The notes beneath the pieces are model-generated. The model was given only the letters and a program-made list of their open reading frames with translations, ran no database searches and was not told where the DNA came from. Shown in pieces: positions 12,883-19,942 of a stretch of 32,000 nucleotides of DNA. The DNA lies in contig DXJG01000001.1 in assembly GCA_019056805.1 (NCBI GenBank), positions 30,001-62,000 of the forward strand, written 5' to 3'. The stretch's first letter is position 1. Each line of letters opens with the position of its first letter. Source of the DNA: Candidatus Baldrarchaeota archaeon. Lineage in GTDB: Archaea > Asgardarchaeota > Baldrarchaeia > Baldrarchaeales > DXJG01. A program made the translations under genes and the position numbers.

Positions 12883-14315
12883 TTATTTTTTAAGACTACA
12901 GTATTCTCGAATATTAATGTACTCGTAGGCATCGGTTAGACTATCGAAACAGTAGTGAACTTTTTGGAAGGCTTTTCTAAATTCGACAACATCTTTAGCA
13001 ACATCTTTGGGATTCTCTTCATTAAATACGATTCTTTTAATAAATTCTGCTATTTCCTCCATGTCGGATTCTTTCATTCCTAATCTAGTAACTTCACTAA
13101 CTCCTAGACGAATACCTCCAGGTCGTTTATAATCTCTTCCAACTCTTTTGTCCCATGGAAGCAAATTCCGATTAATTATAATGTTGGCTTCCTCTAATTT
13201 TTTCTCAACTGTCATACCGTCCTTCAGCGGTGTTTCACTAATGTCTACGAGAATCGTATGTGATTCCGTAAATCCTTTATGTTCAGCGAGAACCTTAAAC
13301 CCTCTTTCGTACAAGGCTTGGCCTAAGGCTTTAGCGTTTTTAATGATTTGACCGGCATACTCGCTACCAAAAGCAAGCATCTCTGCAAAGGCTACAGCTT
13401 TTGGTAGCAGCAGAATTATCTGCTGCTATTCCCAGCAACTAGGTGCAAATGATGATTGCTCATGGTAGACGGGAAAGCTGCTTTTTTGAGTTCCTCAGCA
13501 TATTTGCTATGCGAGAGGACCGTTCCTCCTTGTGGTCCTGGCAATGTTTTGTGTGTACTTATCGTGAAAACGTCCGCCCCTTCTCTTAAGGGGTCTTGGA
13601 ATTTTCCACCGGCAATAAGTCCTGCAACGTGTGCTCCATCGAAGTGTATATATGCACCGATTTCATCTGCAATTTCTCTAATTTCTTTTACTGGTTCTGG
13701 AAATAGAAATACGCTGGCTCCCATTATGAATAATTTTATATGTTTTCCTTCCTTTGCGAGTTTTTTAACTCGTTTTGCTGTTCCATCTACATCGATGTTC
13801 ATTTCTTTCTCGTCAAAGGCAAAATAGTGTACTTTTAAGCCCCTGACTTTCCCCGCCGTGCCCCAGAGTTTTTTCTTTGCATAGCTTATGTGGCCGCCCG
13901 AGGGAATTGAAATACTCATTATATGATCTCCAGGTTCGGTAAAAGCTGAATATACTATTAAATTTGCAATCACTCCGCTTATGGCGCGGACATCAGCAAA
14001 TTCTGCTTTAAATAATTTTTTAGCTAACTCAATAGCTATTTCTTCTACTTGATCTATATAGATACATCCAGCATAAACGCGTTCGCCGGGCCAACCTTAC
14101 CGGTCCCAGTTTAACTGGGACTTTCGGCGTATCTGTTTCCGAAATCGCTGCATAAACATTCTCGAACTGCTGGACTTGGAATGTTTTTCCGACCCAGCCT
14201 TCTATGCTGGGTTTTCGGAAGCTATTAGTGGAATTGTGCTTCGGAACCACTGATGATGTTCTTTTAATAGTTCAAATATTTTATCGTAGTATTTCTTTGC
14301 TTCTTGTTCTTCCAT
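12883..14315 (-). CDS. glyA: Serine hydroxymethyltransferase; 4 exons (14315-14214, 14185-14123, 14096-13429, 13399-12883), 449 aa after splicing
   Basis: LIASEN, RYAEGWPG, GGHIS, DGAHVAGL, STHKTLPGPQGG, SNHHLH, GIRLG. 1433 nt minus 83 nt of introns = 1350 nt. SD GGAGGG upstream of ATG 14315. Confidence 0.93.
13400..13428 (-). other. Relaxed BHB intron 3 of glyA (29 nt)
   Basis: 9-bp stem AGCAGCAGA/TCTGCTGCT, helix TGGG/ACCA with one G.A mismatch; excision gives GGG AA|A GCT (AGKA). Confidence 0.8.
14097..14122 (-). other. BHB intron 2 of glyA (26 nt)
   Basis: Helix GCCG/CGGU, bulges AAA/AAG, 7-bp stem GTCCCAG/CTGGGAC; excision gives GCC GAA|GGT TGG (YAEGW). Confidence 0.9.
14186..14213 (-). 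other. BHB intron 1 of glyA (28 nt)
   Basis: Helix TCCG/CGGA, bulges AAA/AAA, 7-bp stem ACCCAGC/GCTGGGT; excision gives TCC GAA|AAC ATT (SENI). Confidence 0.9.
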
Positions 14316-14725
14316 TTCTTTCCCTCCTGGTATAATTATGTTAAAATTATTTCTTGAACTTATCAATATGTTTGTTTTAGCGGTAGTTAAATTCTTGGTC
14401 CCGTGGTTTATATAAGCTATCCTTTGCTATTTTTAAAGGGAAACTCATTTGTATATGCCTCTTTCTCTCTACGTATTTGTTCAATTATAAATTTAAGTAA
14501 TGAAGCAATTTGTAGGCCTTTTTGTGGATATTATTAGGTGATTGGTTTTGTGGTTAGGTCGATTTACAAAACTTAAGATGATTCTGGTATAGTTTCTTTC
14601 TCTCTTTATGTTACAATCTTAGTTTATGCGTGTACAAAGAACCCTGCTTGTTGTGTTAAAAGAAAGATTAATATTTTGAATTAATTTAATAATTTTGACA
14701 ATTTAAGTATTTGAGGTGTAATTTA

Positions 14726-14920
14726 ATGTCTCGCAAATCTAAGAAGAGAAAGAAAGAAGGCCCTATGCCTGTAACTGGTGCTGGTTTGATCAGGTTCTTT
14801 CAAGATGAAACTAGAGGTATAAAAGTAGGTCCACTTGCAGTTATTATCCTTTCGTTCTTCTTAGTTATTCTTGTGGGACTAGCTTGGTTAAGGTCTTATG
14901 GATTAATACCGTTTCCATAA
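14726..14920 (+). CDS. sec61b: Preprotein translocase Sec61-beta subunit
   Basis: GAGLIRFFQDE..GIKVGP followed by one TM helix. Confidence 0.9.
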   Translation: MSRKSKKRKKEGPMPVTGAGLIRFFQDETRGIKVGPLAVIILSFFLVILVGLAWLRSYGLIPFP

Positions 14921-15534
14921 GTCTCGTTATTTTCTCGCTTGAATGATTTAACTGGTATTATTATTAAGCCGGTTTTCAATTTTTTTATTTCATCCTCGGT
15001 AAGTTTTTCTTTTAGAACTTTATCTTTCCGTGAATGTACTATTGCACTGTTTCCGAATGGATCTTCAATTATTACTGTGACCCTTTCTTTTCCAATTTTT
15101 ACGTTTTCTATTGTGTTCAGGATTTTGTCACATTTCTTTTGTTTGATCTTTTCTGTTGACCATCTTTTAGCCATTTCGACGACGTTCTTTATTCTTTCTA
15201 GTACGCCTTCGATATTCGTTATGAAGGGAGTGGATGCCGGTCCGGGTTCTACTTTGACTCCTAGTTCAGGAACTCTTATAGTGGCTGTTGAAGACTTAAT
15301 TACCTTTGCGTATAAGTCTTGAGGTGTTTCTACTTTTAGGGAATATCGTGAGGGGCCCCTTTCTGATGTGCAAATTACATCACTATGTTTAAATCCGCAG
15401 GATTTACATTGAAGGGTCAATAATAAGACTTCTCCGAAGTGAGGAACTGTAGTTGTTGTTATCCTTTCTATTAGTGTTTTTCTACTGCAGATCGGGCATT
15501 TAGAAACATTAACTTTAAGTGTATTTTCTGTCAT
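14896..15534 (-). CDS. ZPR1 zinc-finger domain protein
   Basis: CPIC...PHFGEV...CKSCGFKHSDV; TNIEGVL; DPFGNS. Confidence 0.92.
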   Translation of the reverse strand: MTENTLKVNVSKCPICSRKTLIERITTTTVPHFGEVLLLTLQCKSCGFKHSDVICTSERGPSRYSLKVETPQDLYAKVIKSSTATIRVPELGVKVEPGPASTPFITNIEGVLERIKNVVEMAKRWSTEKIKQKKCDKILNTIENVKIGKERVTVIIEDPFGNSAIVHSRKDKVLKEKLTEDEIKKLKTGLIIIPVKSFKRENNETYGNGINP

Positions 15535-15582
15535 TTTACTTTACACCATTTACCTATTACAACTCTAACTTCATTGTGAAGC

Positions 15583-17445
15583 TTGGAGGATACAAGTTTG
15601 AGTAAGGTTGAAGAAATTGTAAAGATTTATGGCAAACTTTTCGCCATACCAAGTATGGGAAGGCTTTTAATTGTTAGCTTAGCTGTGAGTATTTTTGTTG
15701 CTTTTTTACCTAATGTTTCATTTTACTTTAAAACCTCTGAGTTAATAGTACTTTTATTTATTTTGTATGAAGGTATTGCAGTAGTGTGGGGCTCATTAGT
15801 TATTTCAGCGTTCATTAGCTTGCCTATAGTTAAAAGAAAAACTCGTATTCTAAATTTTAGGAGACTTATCGCATTAAATCTTTTTTCTGTAATTCTTTTA
15901 TATGCTGTCTATGGTTTGCCAATTTTAGTAACGATTGGTAATTATCGTGTTGCTATAATTTCTCTTTTAATTGGTGTAGCTATAGCTTTCTCTTTTAGAA
16001 TAATAGCATGTTACTCCATTTCACAGCTATCTTTTATGGAATCTGTTATTGTTTCTCTTATTCAGCCATTGCTTCTCTTGTTTTTAAGAGAAGAGTTGTT
16101 AATTTTCTTTTTCCCTTCTAGTTCTCCGATTCCGATAATTAGACCCTATGTTATTCCTCTATTCATAATTTTGATTATTTTCCTATTCTCAACGATCATG
16201 TATCTTAGAACCGTAAATAATAGTGTAAAATCGTCTCTGGGTATTGGCGGTCTAGAATTTCTTAGAGCCTTTATTGCCGAATGGACCGAACAAGAAGGAA
16301 AAACTATGGAAACACTTTTAACTAAGATTGGTGAGGAAAGAAATTTGCCTGTAGCAATTATTTCTTTTAAAAACTTGAAAAACCAAATAAAAGCTATTTT
16401 ACTGGTTCCAGCAATTCACCCTGGACCATTTAAAACGATTGGTAGTAGCATTTTACCCTACTTCTTGGCTAGAGAACTAAAACAAAGAATGGGCGCAGAA
16501 GTGCTTGTTCTCCATGGGCCATGTGATCACTCCCTTAATTTAACATCAAAGACACAGCTTCAATACGTGTTAGATGAAATTATAAAGAATTTAAGCGATA
16601 TTAACTATGTGGATGGAGCAACTCCATTAGTATGCGTCAAGAAAGAAGATGTAACTGTAAAGACTCAAACTTTTGGTGATCTCGCTTTAATCATTGCAAC
16701 TCGCTCACCTCTACCAATGGACGATGTAACTCTTGGTGTGGGACTTTTAGCCTGTGAGATTGCCGAAAAAGAAGGAATCAAAAAAGCCTTTTTTGTTGAT
16801 GCTCATAACTGTATAGGTGAAACCTTCGAAGATGTATTAATTGGTTCTGAACTTGCTGAAAAAATTATTTCAACAGCTCAAGAAAGTATAAAACAAATGC
16901 TGCGTGTAAATGTGAGTCCATTAAAGATAGGAGTCGCAAAAGGTAGAGATATAGACATTTCGTTAGAGGAAGGATTGGGGAGTGATGGTGTATCTATTTT
17001 ACTTATGGAGATCAAAGACGATAGGTATGCTTACGTTATCTTTGATAGCAATAATTTAGATATTGGTCTTAGAGAAGAAATTATTGATCGTTTAAAGAAG
17101 AATTACAAAATAAGAGAAGTAGAGGTTATGACCACCGATACTCATGAAGTGAATGCCGTATCCCCAAGTAAAGGGGGATATATTCCGCTGGGAAAAGAAA
17201 CAGACCATGAAAAAATAATTTCGTATGTAGTCAATCTAGTAAAGCAGGCAGAGGAAAACCTGGAAGCAGTAAAAATAGGAACAAAGATAATAAAGATACA
17301 AAAACTAAAAGTCATAGGGGAAAATCAGGTATCAGTATTAACATCGGCTGTCTCAACTGGATATACAATAGCGAAGAATAGCGCGCTTGCTGTGTTTATT
17401 CCAACACTTATAGCTTCCATGCTACTCGCCATGTTCTTTATCTAG
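15583..17445 (+). CDS. DUF2070 family membrane protein
   Basis: N-terminal TMs; HPGPF, LHGPCDH, DAHNC, DSNN, TTDTH. Confidence 0.88.
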   Translation: MEDTSLSKVEEIVKIYGKLFAIPSMGRLLIVSLAVSIFVAFLPNVSFYFKTSELIVLLFILYEGIAVVWGSLVISAFISLPIVKRKTRILNFRRLIALNLFSVILLYAVYGLPILVTIGNYRVAIISLLIGVAIAFSFRIIACYSISQLSFMESVIVSLIQPLLLLFLREELLIFFFPSSSPIPIIRPYVIPLFIILIIFLFSTIMYLRTVNNSVKSSLGIGGLEFLRAFIAEWTEQEGKTMETLLTKIGEERNLPVAIISFKNLKNQIKAILLVPAIHPGPFKTIGSSILPYFLARELKQRMGAEVLVLHGPCDHSLNLTSKTQLQYVLDEIIKNLSDINYVDGATPLVCVKKEDVTVKTQTFGDLALIIATRSPLPMDDVTLGVGLLACEIAEKEGIKKAFFVDAHNCIGETFEDVLIGSELAEKIISTAQESIKQMLRVNVSPLKIGVAKGRDIDISLEEGLGSDGVSILLMEIKDDRYAYVIFDSNNLDIGLREEIIDRLKKNYKIREVEVMTTDTHEVNAVSPSKGGYIPLGKETDHEKIISYVVNLVKQAEENLEAVKIGTKIIKIQKLKVIGENQVSVLTSAVSTGYTIAKNSALAVFIPTLIASMLLAMFFI

Positions 17446-18903
17446 GGGCGAGATATTTGAAGTTAATTTATTGTACTTCTTAAGATATAGATAATACTTG
17501 TAAGAAGCATATAAAACGTCAATGGCTCTTTCAGGTGTTGGATAACATGGTATTCCTAATTCTTCAACTTTTTGAACATCTTCCATCACGTATTCGCCTA
17601 AGGGGACACAGAAAACCAACGGTTTAGGTGTTTTTACATCCTCTAATATTTCAGCTACCGCCTTACCTACTTCAATGACTTTAAGAGCTGGCACTATTAA
17701 GGAAATACCATTAACCGTTTCAGTTCTCATCAGCATTCTGGCACTTTCAACATACTGTTCTGTTGTAACTAGAAAGCTTAAATCGAGTGGATTAAAGTTA
17801 CTTGTCCATGGAAAAGCGATTCCTTTAAGTTTTTTTAAGGTCATATTTGGAAGTTTAGCTATCTCTAATCCAAGTAAAACCGCTCTATCCACGGATAAAA
17901 CTCCCATGGATCCGGCATAAGTTACAACGGCGAGACCTTTATCTTTCATTAAGGGTTGTAAAGCAAAAAATCTGACGAAATCAAATAATTGCTCCAAGCT
18001 CTCAGCTCTTATGGCCCCACTTTGTTTGAAAGCAGCATCATAGATTTCCACGTTTCCAGCTAGACTTGCAGTATGAGAAGTGACTGCTCTCTTCCCTTCT
18101 TCGGTTCTTCCGCCTTTTAATATCACAATAGGTTTCTTCAAGGCGGCTTTTTTAAGTGTTCTTAAAAACTTTCTGCCGTTACTCACGCCTTCAAGGTACA
18201 TTCCTATAACTTTAGTATCGGGATCATCTGCAAGATATTCTATTGTATCTGCTTCATCTACATCAACTTTATTTCCGATTGTAACAACTTTGCTAATCCC
18301 CCATCTAGGACCGTATATCTCTAGCATGCCGGCTGCAAAAATGCCAGCTTGCGTTATGAAACTTATACCTCCTTTTTTAAGATTCTTAACTTTTGCGAAG
18401 GTTGTTATAAGATTTCTGTGGGTATTTACTACTCCTGCACAGTTTGGACCAATAATTCTAATGTTGTTTTCTTTAACGATTTCGCGTATTTTTTTCTGAA
18501 GTTCTGCTCCCTCTCCTCCTATTTCAGCAAATCCACCGGCTTCAATAATAACAGCTTTAACATTTTTATTAACGCATTCCATCAAGATCTTAGGAATGAT
18601 TTTTGCTGGAACAATAAGTACGGCAAGGTCAACTTCATCTGGAATGTCTAAAATGGACTTATAACATTTTAATCCTAATATTTCATTTAAATTTGGATTA
18701 ACAGGATAGATTTTCCCTTGAAATCTTCCTTCAACAAGATTAAGTAGGACATTATATCCAAGCTTGCCTGGTGTTGCGGACGCTCCAATTACTGCAACAG
18801 ATTTAGGCTCAAAAAAGTATTTTATGCTTTCATACACCGCTACGCCTTCACGTTTAAATGTTTCAGCCTCATGTCCTATTTCGACGGAAGATATGTCGAC
18901 CAT
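17422..18903 (-). CDS. acdA: ADP-forming acyl-CoA synthetase alpha subunit
   Basis: PKSVAVIGAS, YPVNP, GPNC, SHTASLAG (phospho-His motif). Confidence 0.9.
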   Translation of the reverse strand: MVDISSVEIGHEAETFKREGVAVYESIKYFFEPKSVAVIGASATPGKLGYNVLLNLVEGRFQGKIYPVNPNLNEILGLKCYKSILDIPDEVDLAVLIVPAKIIPKILMECVNKNVKAVIIEAGGFAEIGGEGAELQKKIREIVKENNIRIIGPNCAGVVNTHRNLITTFAKVKNLKKGGISFITQAGIFAAGMLEIYGPRWGISKVVTIGNKVDVDEADTIEYLADDPDTKVIGMYLEGVSNGRKFLRTLKKAALKKPIVILKGGRTEEGKRAVTSHTASLAGNVEIYDAAFKQSGAIRAESLEQLFDFVRFFALQPLMKDKGLAVVTYAGSMGVLSVDRAVLLGLEIAKLPNMTLKKLKGIAFPWTSNFNPLDLSFLVTTEQYVESARMLMRTETVNGISLIVPALKVIEVGKAVAEILEDVKTPKPLVFCVPLGEYVMEDVQKVEELGIPCYPTPERAIDVLYASYKYYLYLKKYNKLTSNISPLDKEHGE

Positions 18904-19331
18904 GAGCTTCCCTCCGAATTTAGCAAGGAGGGAAACAAGAACAAGAAATATAAATTTTTCATAGATAGATATTTACATCTACGTTGGAAAAGATGACATA
19001 AAACTACATAAATTATTAAATCTATCTAACATTTGTAAAAATATTTTTTGTAAAAGAAAATATTTTATTATATTTCCAAAATATAGTGCAAGTTTCAAGA
19101 ACTTAACTCGTAACAAAGTGATTGATAAAAATCGACTAACTTCAAATCTCTGAATAGCCAATATAAGATAAAAATCTAGCAAATATCAATAAAAACATCT
19201 AGAAACAATAGAATAAAGATCCAACGTCGCAACTTCCATTTTTTTTAACCCAATAAATATAAATAAACACGTATAGTACAACATATCAACAAGAACTTAA
19301 ATGAGAAAAAACGTCTAAAGAGGGAAAAAGA

Positions 19332-19942
19332 ATGAAGGAGAAAGGAAAAATAATAGAAATACGAAGTCATGGTCGAGGTGGACAAGGTGTGGTTATTTTT
19401 TCTGAACTCTTGGCAAAAGCTGCATATTTAGATGGCTATATGGCGCAGTCGTTCCCATTTTTCGGCGCAGAAAAGGCAGTTCTTCTCTGAAAGGACTGCC
19501 TCTGCAGAGGCGTGGAGCCCCCTTAATGGCTTTCACACGAATTAGTGATAAAGAGATTTTGTTAAGAAGCCAAGTTTATAATCCTGATATCGTTGTTGTT
19601 TTGGACCCAGTTATCTTAGAGCTAGTAAATGTCACTGATGGATTAAAAGCTGATGGATGGTTGATTGCAAACACTCCAAAGAAACCAGAAGAACTTGGTT
19701 TAAACGGGTCTTTTAAAATCGCAACCGTTGATGCTACCGGCATTGCATTGGAATTAAATCTAAAAGTTGCAGGTTTCGCTGTAGTCAACACACCGATGTT
19801 AGGAGCGTTTTCCAAGGCTACGAAATTAGTGTCACTTGAATCGGTCAAAAGAGTTATTTTAGAGGAATGGAAAGGTGAACTAGCGGAGCTAAATGCCAAA
19901 GCAGCTGAGCTAGCCTTCGAAAAAACTATTGTAAAAGTTTAG
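19332..19942 (+). CDS. porG: 2-oxoacid (pyruvate-type):ferredoxin oxidoreductase gamma subunit; 2 exons (19332-19472, 19508-19942), 191 aa spliced
   Basis: HGRGGQG, FGAE|RRGAP, NTPMLGA. 611 nt minus 35 nt = 576 nt. Confidence 0.92.
19473..19507 (+). other. Canonical BHB intron of porG (35 nt)
   Basis: Helix GCAG/CTGC, bulges AAA/AGA, 11-bp stem; excision gives GCA GAA|AGG CGT (AERR). Confidence 0.92.

Follow-up and report, generated by a model that had tools for sequence, protein, structure and literature searches.

Short interruptions in glyA and porG of an Asgard archaeal genome as probable bulge-helix-bulge introns with GAA as part of the splicing motif

Why do four short interruptions in two genes all follow the bases GAA? 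The question is raised by a 32,000-nt stretch of a Candidatus Baldrarchaeota genome (contig C6, positions 30001-62000; hereafter the window), in which glyA, encoding serine hydroxymethyltransferase (SHMT), lies on the minus strand in four pieces separated by three short inserts, and porG (pyruvate:ferredoxin oxidoreductase gamma) lies on the plus strand in two pieces with one insert. The initial annotation, made from the letters alone, had treated the shared GAA as the mark either of a preferred insertion target or of retention where imprecise loss would be lethal. Both biases on which it drew persist in a larger set of introns, although our results suggest that GAA is better read as the exon share of a bulge together with a closing G-C pair. 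We consider it likely, with a probability of about 0.7, that the four interruptions are bulge-helix-bulge (BHB) introns and that the terminal GAA represents the half of the 5' cleavage site that the exon encodes. Exons ending in GAA and introns ending in AA, which the initial annotation did not link, are the two halves of one mirror-symmetric RNA motif.

The window belongs to a metagenome-assembled genome (MAG) of 1.92 Mb in 18 contigs, about 35% GC and 91% complete (G000). It was compared with two assemblies of the same genus (G001 and G003) and with a related species (G005), whose complete 1.42-Mb genome has an uninterrupted glyA and served as protein reference. The parts of the two genes, in window positions, are:

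14214..14315, minus strand: glyA exon 1, 34 codons, last bases TCC GAA; exons 1 and 2, fused, align without gaps to the intron-free G005 SHMT
14186..14213, minus strand: glyA intron 1, 28 nt, preceded by TCCGAA, 3' end AA, phase 0 after Glu GAA
14123..14185, minus strand: glyA exon 2, a 63-nt micro-exon (NIPSPAVRECLCSDFGNRYAE), last bases GCC GAA
14097..14122, minus strand: glyA intron 2, 26 nt, preceded by GCCGAA, 3' end AA, phase 0 after Glu GAA
13429..14096, minus strand: glyA exon 3, 222 codons plus 2 nt, last bases GGG AA, Pfam SHMT profile 51-283
13400..13428, minus strand: glyA intron 3, 29 nt, preceded by TGGGAA, 3' end AA, phase 2
12883..13399, minus strand: glyA exon 4, stop codon included, Pfam SHMT profile 299-399
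19332..19472, plus strand: porG exon 1, last bases GCA GAA, Pfam POR profile 1-32
19473..19507, plus strand: porG intron, 35 nt, preceded by GCAGAA, 3' end AG, phase 0 after Glu GAA
19508..19942, plus strand: porG exon 2, Pfam POR profile 33-173, exactly contiguous with exon 1

The exon and intron ends given here, and the phase-0 position of three introns directly after a Glu codon GAA, are those of the initial annotation and were confirmed in the sequence. To these inserts we applied the BHB geometry in which a four-base exon segment is paired to the four bases of the intron that immediately precede the 3' bulge, each of the three-nucleotide bulges being cut after its second base, in agreement with the published definition (bioRxiv 10.64898/2026.10.13.758758, section 4.8; PMC6379350). 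Cutting at the positions predicted in this way restores the in-frame peptides LIASE^N, RYAE^GWPG, VAG-K-AVA and FGAE^RRGAP (^ marks a cut or junction). The predicted folds are:

glyA intron 1: helix TCCG/CGGA (4/4 pairs), 5' bulge AA^A, 3' bulge AA^A, hairpin 7 bp, z = -4.0
glyA intron 2: helix GCCG/CGGT (4/4 pairs), 5' bulge AA^A, 3' bulge AA^G, hairpin 7-8 bp, z = -2.3
glyA intron 3: relaxed, helix TGGG/ACCA (3/4 pairs), 5' bulge AA^T, 3' bulge AA^A, hairpin 9 bp, z = -3.4
porG intron: helix GCAG/CTGC (4/4 pairs), 5' bulge AA^A, 3' bulge AG^A, hairpin 11 bp

The minimum-energy folds contained the helix, the 3-nt bulge and the hairpin for three of the four introns, the intron helix h' measured 7-11 bp, and all four were more stable than shuffled sequences (z = -2.0 to -4.0). 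Because of the repeated A's at the junctions, 6, 3, 3 and 2 registers, respectively, would yield an identical mRNA. The mRNA product alone can thus not fix the register, and it is the canonical BHB geometry that sets the cut after GAA.

How could such a structure bring GAA to the end of an exon? In the mechanism that we propose, the archaeal tRNA-splicing endonuclease (EndA) would cut the introns and RtcB would rejoin the exons. The central helix would consist of exon bases -6 to -3 and the four intron bases just upstream of the 3' bulge, with G at -3 in the last pair. The AA at -2 and -1 and the first intron base, almost always A, would constitute the 5' bulge, cut after its second base, and the terminal AA of the intron with the first base of exon 2 would form the mirror-image 3' bulge. 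An mRNA intron of the BHB kind would then be possible only where the coding sequence has a short GC-rich stretch followed by A-A. Such places should be rare at 35% GC, and they would most often be spelled by the codon of a small residue and then GAA for Glu (Ser-Glu, Ala-Glu). For splicing to continue, the exon half of the fold would also have to stay constant. As GAA and AA are mirror halves of one structure, the pattern points to a requirement of RNA splicing rather than to a target for insertion into DNA.

GAA at all four window junctions is far above chance, but the same four junctions generated the hypothesis. A wider set of mRNA introns was assembled by reference searches, using split tblastn hits, ungapped extension of alignments from the ends of high-scoring segment pairs across candidate junctions, and blastp of the fused peptides. 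This gave 12 introns in nine genes of G000: glyA (three), porG, pyrG, aIF5B, fbp (two), pcm, the gene at C17:158950, atpD and rpoN. For eleven of them the sequence spanning the junction was checked by comparison with an intron-free relative or with Pfam, and the rpoN intron was accepted on motif and fold, a MIIPVRCFTCGK-type motif with an 11-bp GC-rich hairpin. A reciprocal search showed at least three or four BHB mRNA introns of G005's own, in genes that are uninterrupted in G000 (578646-578672(-), 630086-630116(+), 1251645-1251671(-) and 852786-852814(-)), one of which has a GCCG/CGGT helix and AA^A bulges as in glyA intron 2. The exon four-mer pairs with the intron at all four positions in 15 of the 16 cases; hairpins are 6-13 bp, and the introns are 22-49 nt long and without coding capacity. 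In G000 the mRNA introns cluster toward the 5' ends of genes, with 7/12 in the first 15% of the coding sequence (binomial P = 0.0007, in a test that counts introns of one gene as if independent).

Filtering on the fusion of open reading frames alone was given up: with 486,000 geometric BHB candidates, the true register gave as many cases as registers displaced by 1-3 nt, the signal being drowned by junctions between genes. Eleven intron candidates were dropped on inspection, as either the frame without splicing fitted the orthologue or the presumed intron contained a start codon. These were S24e (C10:44562), leuS (C17:165655), glyS (C9:203957), pop5 (C17:78620), C6:29444, C6:77953, C9:238626, C13:27137, C6:114510, C9:101342 and C15:64584; two of them would have been false GAA cases. 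The expectation that GAA itself provides a usable search pattern did not hold up, since S-AAA...AA with minimal BHB geometry returned 348 hits, nearly all spurious.

In G000 the last three exon bases are GAA in 5/12 introns (the four of the window and atpD), and the remaining ends, CTA, ATA, CAA, CAG, CAC, GAC and GAT, are found in equally good motifs. The G005 introns follow CAA, GAA, GAA and TAT, which brings the total to 7/16. GAA as a signature shared by all upstream exons is thereby true of the window and not of the larger set. Could the run in the window be a coincidence, produced by codon bias and the choice of register? GAA is common in this AT-rich genome with its Glu-rich proteome (it is the second most frequent coding trinucleotide, 3.4%), the register is ambiguous for all four window introns, and outside the window only one of eight G000 introns follows GAA (P = 0.24). 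However, when the four independent G005 introns are added, GAA precedes 3 of the 12 introns that did not generate the hypothesis (P = 0.0067), and A stands at -2 in 10 of these 12 (P = 0.0009). In addition, the register was set by the BHB geometry and not picked to yield GAA. Chance is in our opinion an improbable explanation. The bias that the initial annotation proposed to look for in a larger set survives there; the GAA enrichment is real but partial, and GAA is no universal tag of these introns.

The composition of the bulges showed where the signal lies. Among the 12 G000 introns, the 5' bulge has A at exon position -2 in 10, at -1 in 8 and at intron +1 in 11, and the 3' bulge has A at intron -2 in 11, at intron -1 in 9 and at exon 2 +1 in 7. 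A is thus as frequent at positions encoded by the intron as at those encoded by the exon, and the signal does not belong to the exon specifically. G or C stands at -3 in 11/12, and in GC content the exon four-mer of the helix ranks at the 92nd percentile of its gene. This bears directly on the idea that GAA is a proto-splice site, i.e. that introns enter at (GC-rich)-G-A-A^R sites by pairing-guided reverse splicing or some other targeted route, because a signal equally strong at intron-encoded bulge positions is inexplicable by a DNA target. A family of mobile introns fits poorly as well: no mobility function is encoded in these 22-49 nt, and the A-rich consensus is not confined to the exon side. 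In about 12 likely tRNA introns, hand-picked by eye, A was kept at the intron-encoded bulge positions and the exon-encoded ones varied (AT, GG, GC, TT, CC). This fits a preference of the fold or the enzyme, either of which probably favours A-rich bulges, and mRNAs with their thousands of possible sites can meet such a preference on the exon side too.

Asgard archaea are reported to have heavily interrupted tRNA genes. With ARAGORN only 18 tRNA genes were found in G000 despite its 91% completeness, many with odd intron calls, which fits interrupted genes of this kind. A set of 35 other BHB-shaped hairpins, tried as a proxy for tRNA introns, was discarded because it was contaminated by tRNA arms.

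The junctions are also unusual in the proteins they interrupt. In an alignment of 14 intron-free SHMT orthologues, glyA junctions 1, 2 and 3 lie at the 82nd, 99th and 57th percentile of local conservation, and the residues beside introns 1 and 2 are invariant; the porG junction, judged by pairwise comparison, is at the 96th. The earlier statement that all four sit in conserved motifs is accordingly right for three and wrong for glyA intron 3. For 11 junctions compared with G005, the mean within-gene conservation percentile was 0.77 (Wilcoxon P = 0.003) with 8/11 above the 75th, an upper bound on the effect size, as validation through homology across the junction favours conserved sites. The bias toward conservation thus persists in the larger set. 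GC content was tested as its cause and accounts for little, since the mean for equally GC-rich four-mers elsewhere in these genes is 0.55 (Mann-Whitney P = 0.004).

One explanation for this bias is that introns arise anywhere and last only in invariant motifs, where an imprecise deletion ruins the protein. The elevated percentiles, the difference from GC-matched sites and the invariant residues flanking glyA introns 1 and 2 are all what it expects. Still, it leaves GAA, the A-rich intron-encoded positions and the GC-rich helix unexplained, glyA intron 3 and fbp intron 2 (52nd percentile) occupy average sites, and part of the bias may come from the homology-based detection. Furthermore, the glyA and porG introns are confined to one genus, which looks like recent gain and not like long survival. 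A need to keep the exon half of the BHB motif constant for splicing would create such a bias as well, and this may be the reason why surviving introns are found at invariant residues. The direction of cause is probably this one, and we regard differential retention as a doubtful account of the pattern, though less so than the other alternatives.

Comparison within the genus supported the structural reading. Frames of glyA and porG interrupted as in the window were found only in G001 and G003, which keep all four introns; in at least 15 other families of the phylum the genes are uninterrupted. Likewise, a glyA exon 3 open frame of 226 aa is seen only in the same genus, vs. 438-460 aa in other families. 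The region is about 80% DNA-identical within the genus, yet at all three glyA introns the helix, the bulges and the final 8 bases of the exon show no change, and the differences there are limited to loops or compatible with wobble pairing. In glyA intron 1 of G001 and G003 the changes are confined to the loop and one wobble pair, and in glyA intron 3 of these relatives a loop change adds a C-G pair. The porG hairpin has three fully compensatory double changes between G000 and G001/G003 (three genomes compared). The protein of glyA exon 3 is 93% identical vs. about 80% DNA identity of the gene region, which indicates purifying selection.

These data also speak to the suspicion that the inserts are no introns at all but assembly errors, decaying pseudogenes or sites of programmed frameshifting. 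Splicing is deduced here from sequence, the assembly is of MAG grade, and the genome has an uninterrupted SHMT paralogue (C9:422089-422703). Against this, the same inserts occur at the same positions in two further assemblies of the genus, with compensatory changes, and the gene is under purifying selection. Moreover, excision restores invariant motifs exactly with contiguous Pfam coordinates, and 12 cases in nine genes share one geometry. An artefact or decay is therefore very unlikely. The paralogue, on the plus strand, has an open frame of 389 aa (49% identity); the best similarity of the interrupted glyA outside its own genus (68-74%) is to Nitrososphaerota and Bathyarchaeia genes. A porG homologue in G004, a genome of the same order, is split at about residue 94 of the part that matches exon 2 (L221, G004:C56:105166-108456; two hits, open frames of 157 and 69 aa), and this interruption differs from that of the window.

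Further afield, one SHMT motif is interrupted repeatedly. Of 109 SHMT loci 88 are uninterrupted, and four others have introns in the same RYAE^GWPGE^R motif. In a Bathyarchaeia MAG (L196, 1168-1201) an unrelated 32-nt BHB intron sits at the codon boundary of glyA intron 2 (GCGGAA^). Five codons downstream, at CTGGAG^, unrelated BHB-shaped introns are found in two genomes of the same phylum, G025 and G015 (L009 and L010, about 1465-1501), and in another Bathyarchaeia MAG (L142, about 835-866). That four lineages from two phyla use two sites of one invariant motif points either to gains in parallel at the few places where splicing is possible or to a true target preference.

Recurrence speaks for introns entering at preferred sites: unrelated introns interrupt the same motif in four lineages at two sites five codons apart, with GCSGAA^ in this genus and in L196 and CTGGAG^ in G015/G025 and L142. 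NCCG-A sites recur likewise, at glyA introns 1 and 2, in rpoN and at the G005 intron with the GCCG/CGGT helix. In addition, some introns located at separate sites are alike. TAGCAGC..ATAAT..GCTGCTA is common to glyA intron 3 and fbp intron 1, CTAG recurs as a palindrome (GCTAG/CTAGC) in 4/12 intron hairpins, and 5 of 120 intron pairs are similar at P <= 0.01 against shuffles, where 1.2 are expected, although the shuffle test ignores the symmetry of hairpins, which inflates the scores and overstates the similarity. The shared stems hint that some introns are copies of one another. The introns with the CTAG element are those of pyrG, aIF5B, fbp (the first) and pcm. Finally, GAR is already present at the sites of glyA introns 1 and 2 in 88/88 intron-free orthologues, but this follows from the invariant Glu and is uninformative. 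Recurrence at one motif is also to be expected if few sites permit splicing, and a preprint on Asgard tRNA introns gives no general route of arrival (bioRxiv 10.64898/2026.10.13.758758). Together with the A-rich intron-encoded positions this makes a gain preference an unlikely source of GAA. Wider in scope is a true proto-splice-site rule for the mRNA mini-introns of Asgard archaea and Bathyarchaeia, with repeated gain by pairing-guided reverse splicing at a GC-rich codon plus G-A-A^R in invariant, mostly 5'-proximal motifs. We hold such a rule to be unlikely too. If true, the same motif would have been hit independently in different phyla, and the closest relatives of eukaryotes would offer a prokaryotic counterpart to the debate on insertion sites of spliceosomal introns.

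The enzymes that BHB splicing would need are encoded in G000, namely two EndA-family genes (PF01974; open frames of 189 and 203 aa, 110 and 84 bits) and one RtcB (608 bits). Relaxed BHB motifs need a hetero-oligomeric endonuclease of broad specificity (PMC6379350), and the two EndA paralogues, which may form an (alpha-beta)2 assembly as judged from the presence of two, are consistent with such an enzyme. EndA probably cuts at the proposed sites in vivo. The genome also contains three elements of 79-99 nt outside obvious open reading frames (C9:185819-185917(+), C18:35013-35101(-) and C9:441627-441705(-)), bounded by strong BHB-like motifs (GGTG.AR^A ... CRCC.AA^A), and a common interior that includes a C-rich tract (GTGTGAGTAGGTCTCCCCCCTCCTCCCCCT) is present in at least two of the three. 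One possibility is that the elements form a family of RNAs that are excised or circular.

Several points weigh against reading the four interruptions as BHB introns with GAA as part of the cleavage site. We infer cleavage and ligation of these transcripts from the motif. In glyA intron 3 only 3/4 central pairs form and the lowest-energy fold is in another register. The outer exon-exon helices are short, 0-4 bp across the mRNA introns and 1-2 bp in those of the window, which makes the motifs of the relaxed HBh' type, still inside the published definition. Recognition by EndA has been described as structural, and a base preference in BHB bulges was not stated in the literature searched. The tRNA introns used for comparison were chosen by hand, from a genome for which ARAGORN reports few tRNAs and places introns unreliably, and A enrichment was much weaker in the 35 discarded hairpins, a noisy and contaminated set. 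The conservation bias may be inflated by the way the introns were validated. Finally, structure alone leaves unexplained how a new intron gains four bases complementary to its host exon.

Taken together, our results provide first testable rules for where introns of this kind are placed in mRNA: a GC-rich exon stretch that pairs with the intron, A-rich mirror bulges, from which the GAA tendency results, a bias toward invariant protein sites and the 5' end of the gene, and recurrence at one SHMT motif across phyla. They explain why gene callers break such genes, and they make a strong hairpin with its helix, and not GAA, the key in searches for further introns. Insertion target or splicing constraint becomes a decidable question.

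In the literature searched, BHB introns in coding sequences were described for only one gene, cbf5, with nothing on where in an mRNA they are placed, and neither mRNA BHB introns of Asgard archaea or their placement rules, nor a junction consensus (A-rich bulges, GC-rich exon helix) or a bias to conserved sites for mRNA introns, were found there. The cbf5 pre-mRNA intron of Crenarchaeota (PMC2738675; cited in PMC6379350) resembles those described here in being short, inside a protein-coding gene, bounded by a BHB motif and presumably cut by EndA, in a host with a hetero-oligomeric endonuclease of broad specificity (a probable feature of G000), and in being present in some lineages and missing in close relatives. 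The difference is one of extent and host, since here at least nine housekeeping genes of one genome are interrupted, one of them three times, in an Asgard archaeon (Baldrarchaeia-type MAGs).

A second likeness is to the non-canonical tRNA introns of Asgard archaea and Thermoproteales (bioRxiv 10.64898/2026.10.13.758758; Marck and Grosjean 2003, as cited there). These also have four exon bases paired with the intron and three-base bulges with a cut inside each, they are located where the host sequence lets the motif form, and their gains recur. In mRNA, by contrast, the exon half is bound by codons and not by tRNA structure, and of the thousands of possible sites the occupied ones show a preference for A-A that the exon positions of tRNAs do not.

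The eukaryotic proto-splice site is MAG^R. There, too, a short consensus on the exon side accompanies introns, and the debate is whether it reflects an insertion target or later selection. The two systems share neither splicing machinery nor chemistry: in the one described here a protein endonuclease and a ligase would act instead of a spliceosome, and the consensus is part of a base-paired RNA structure.

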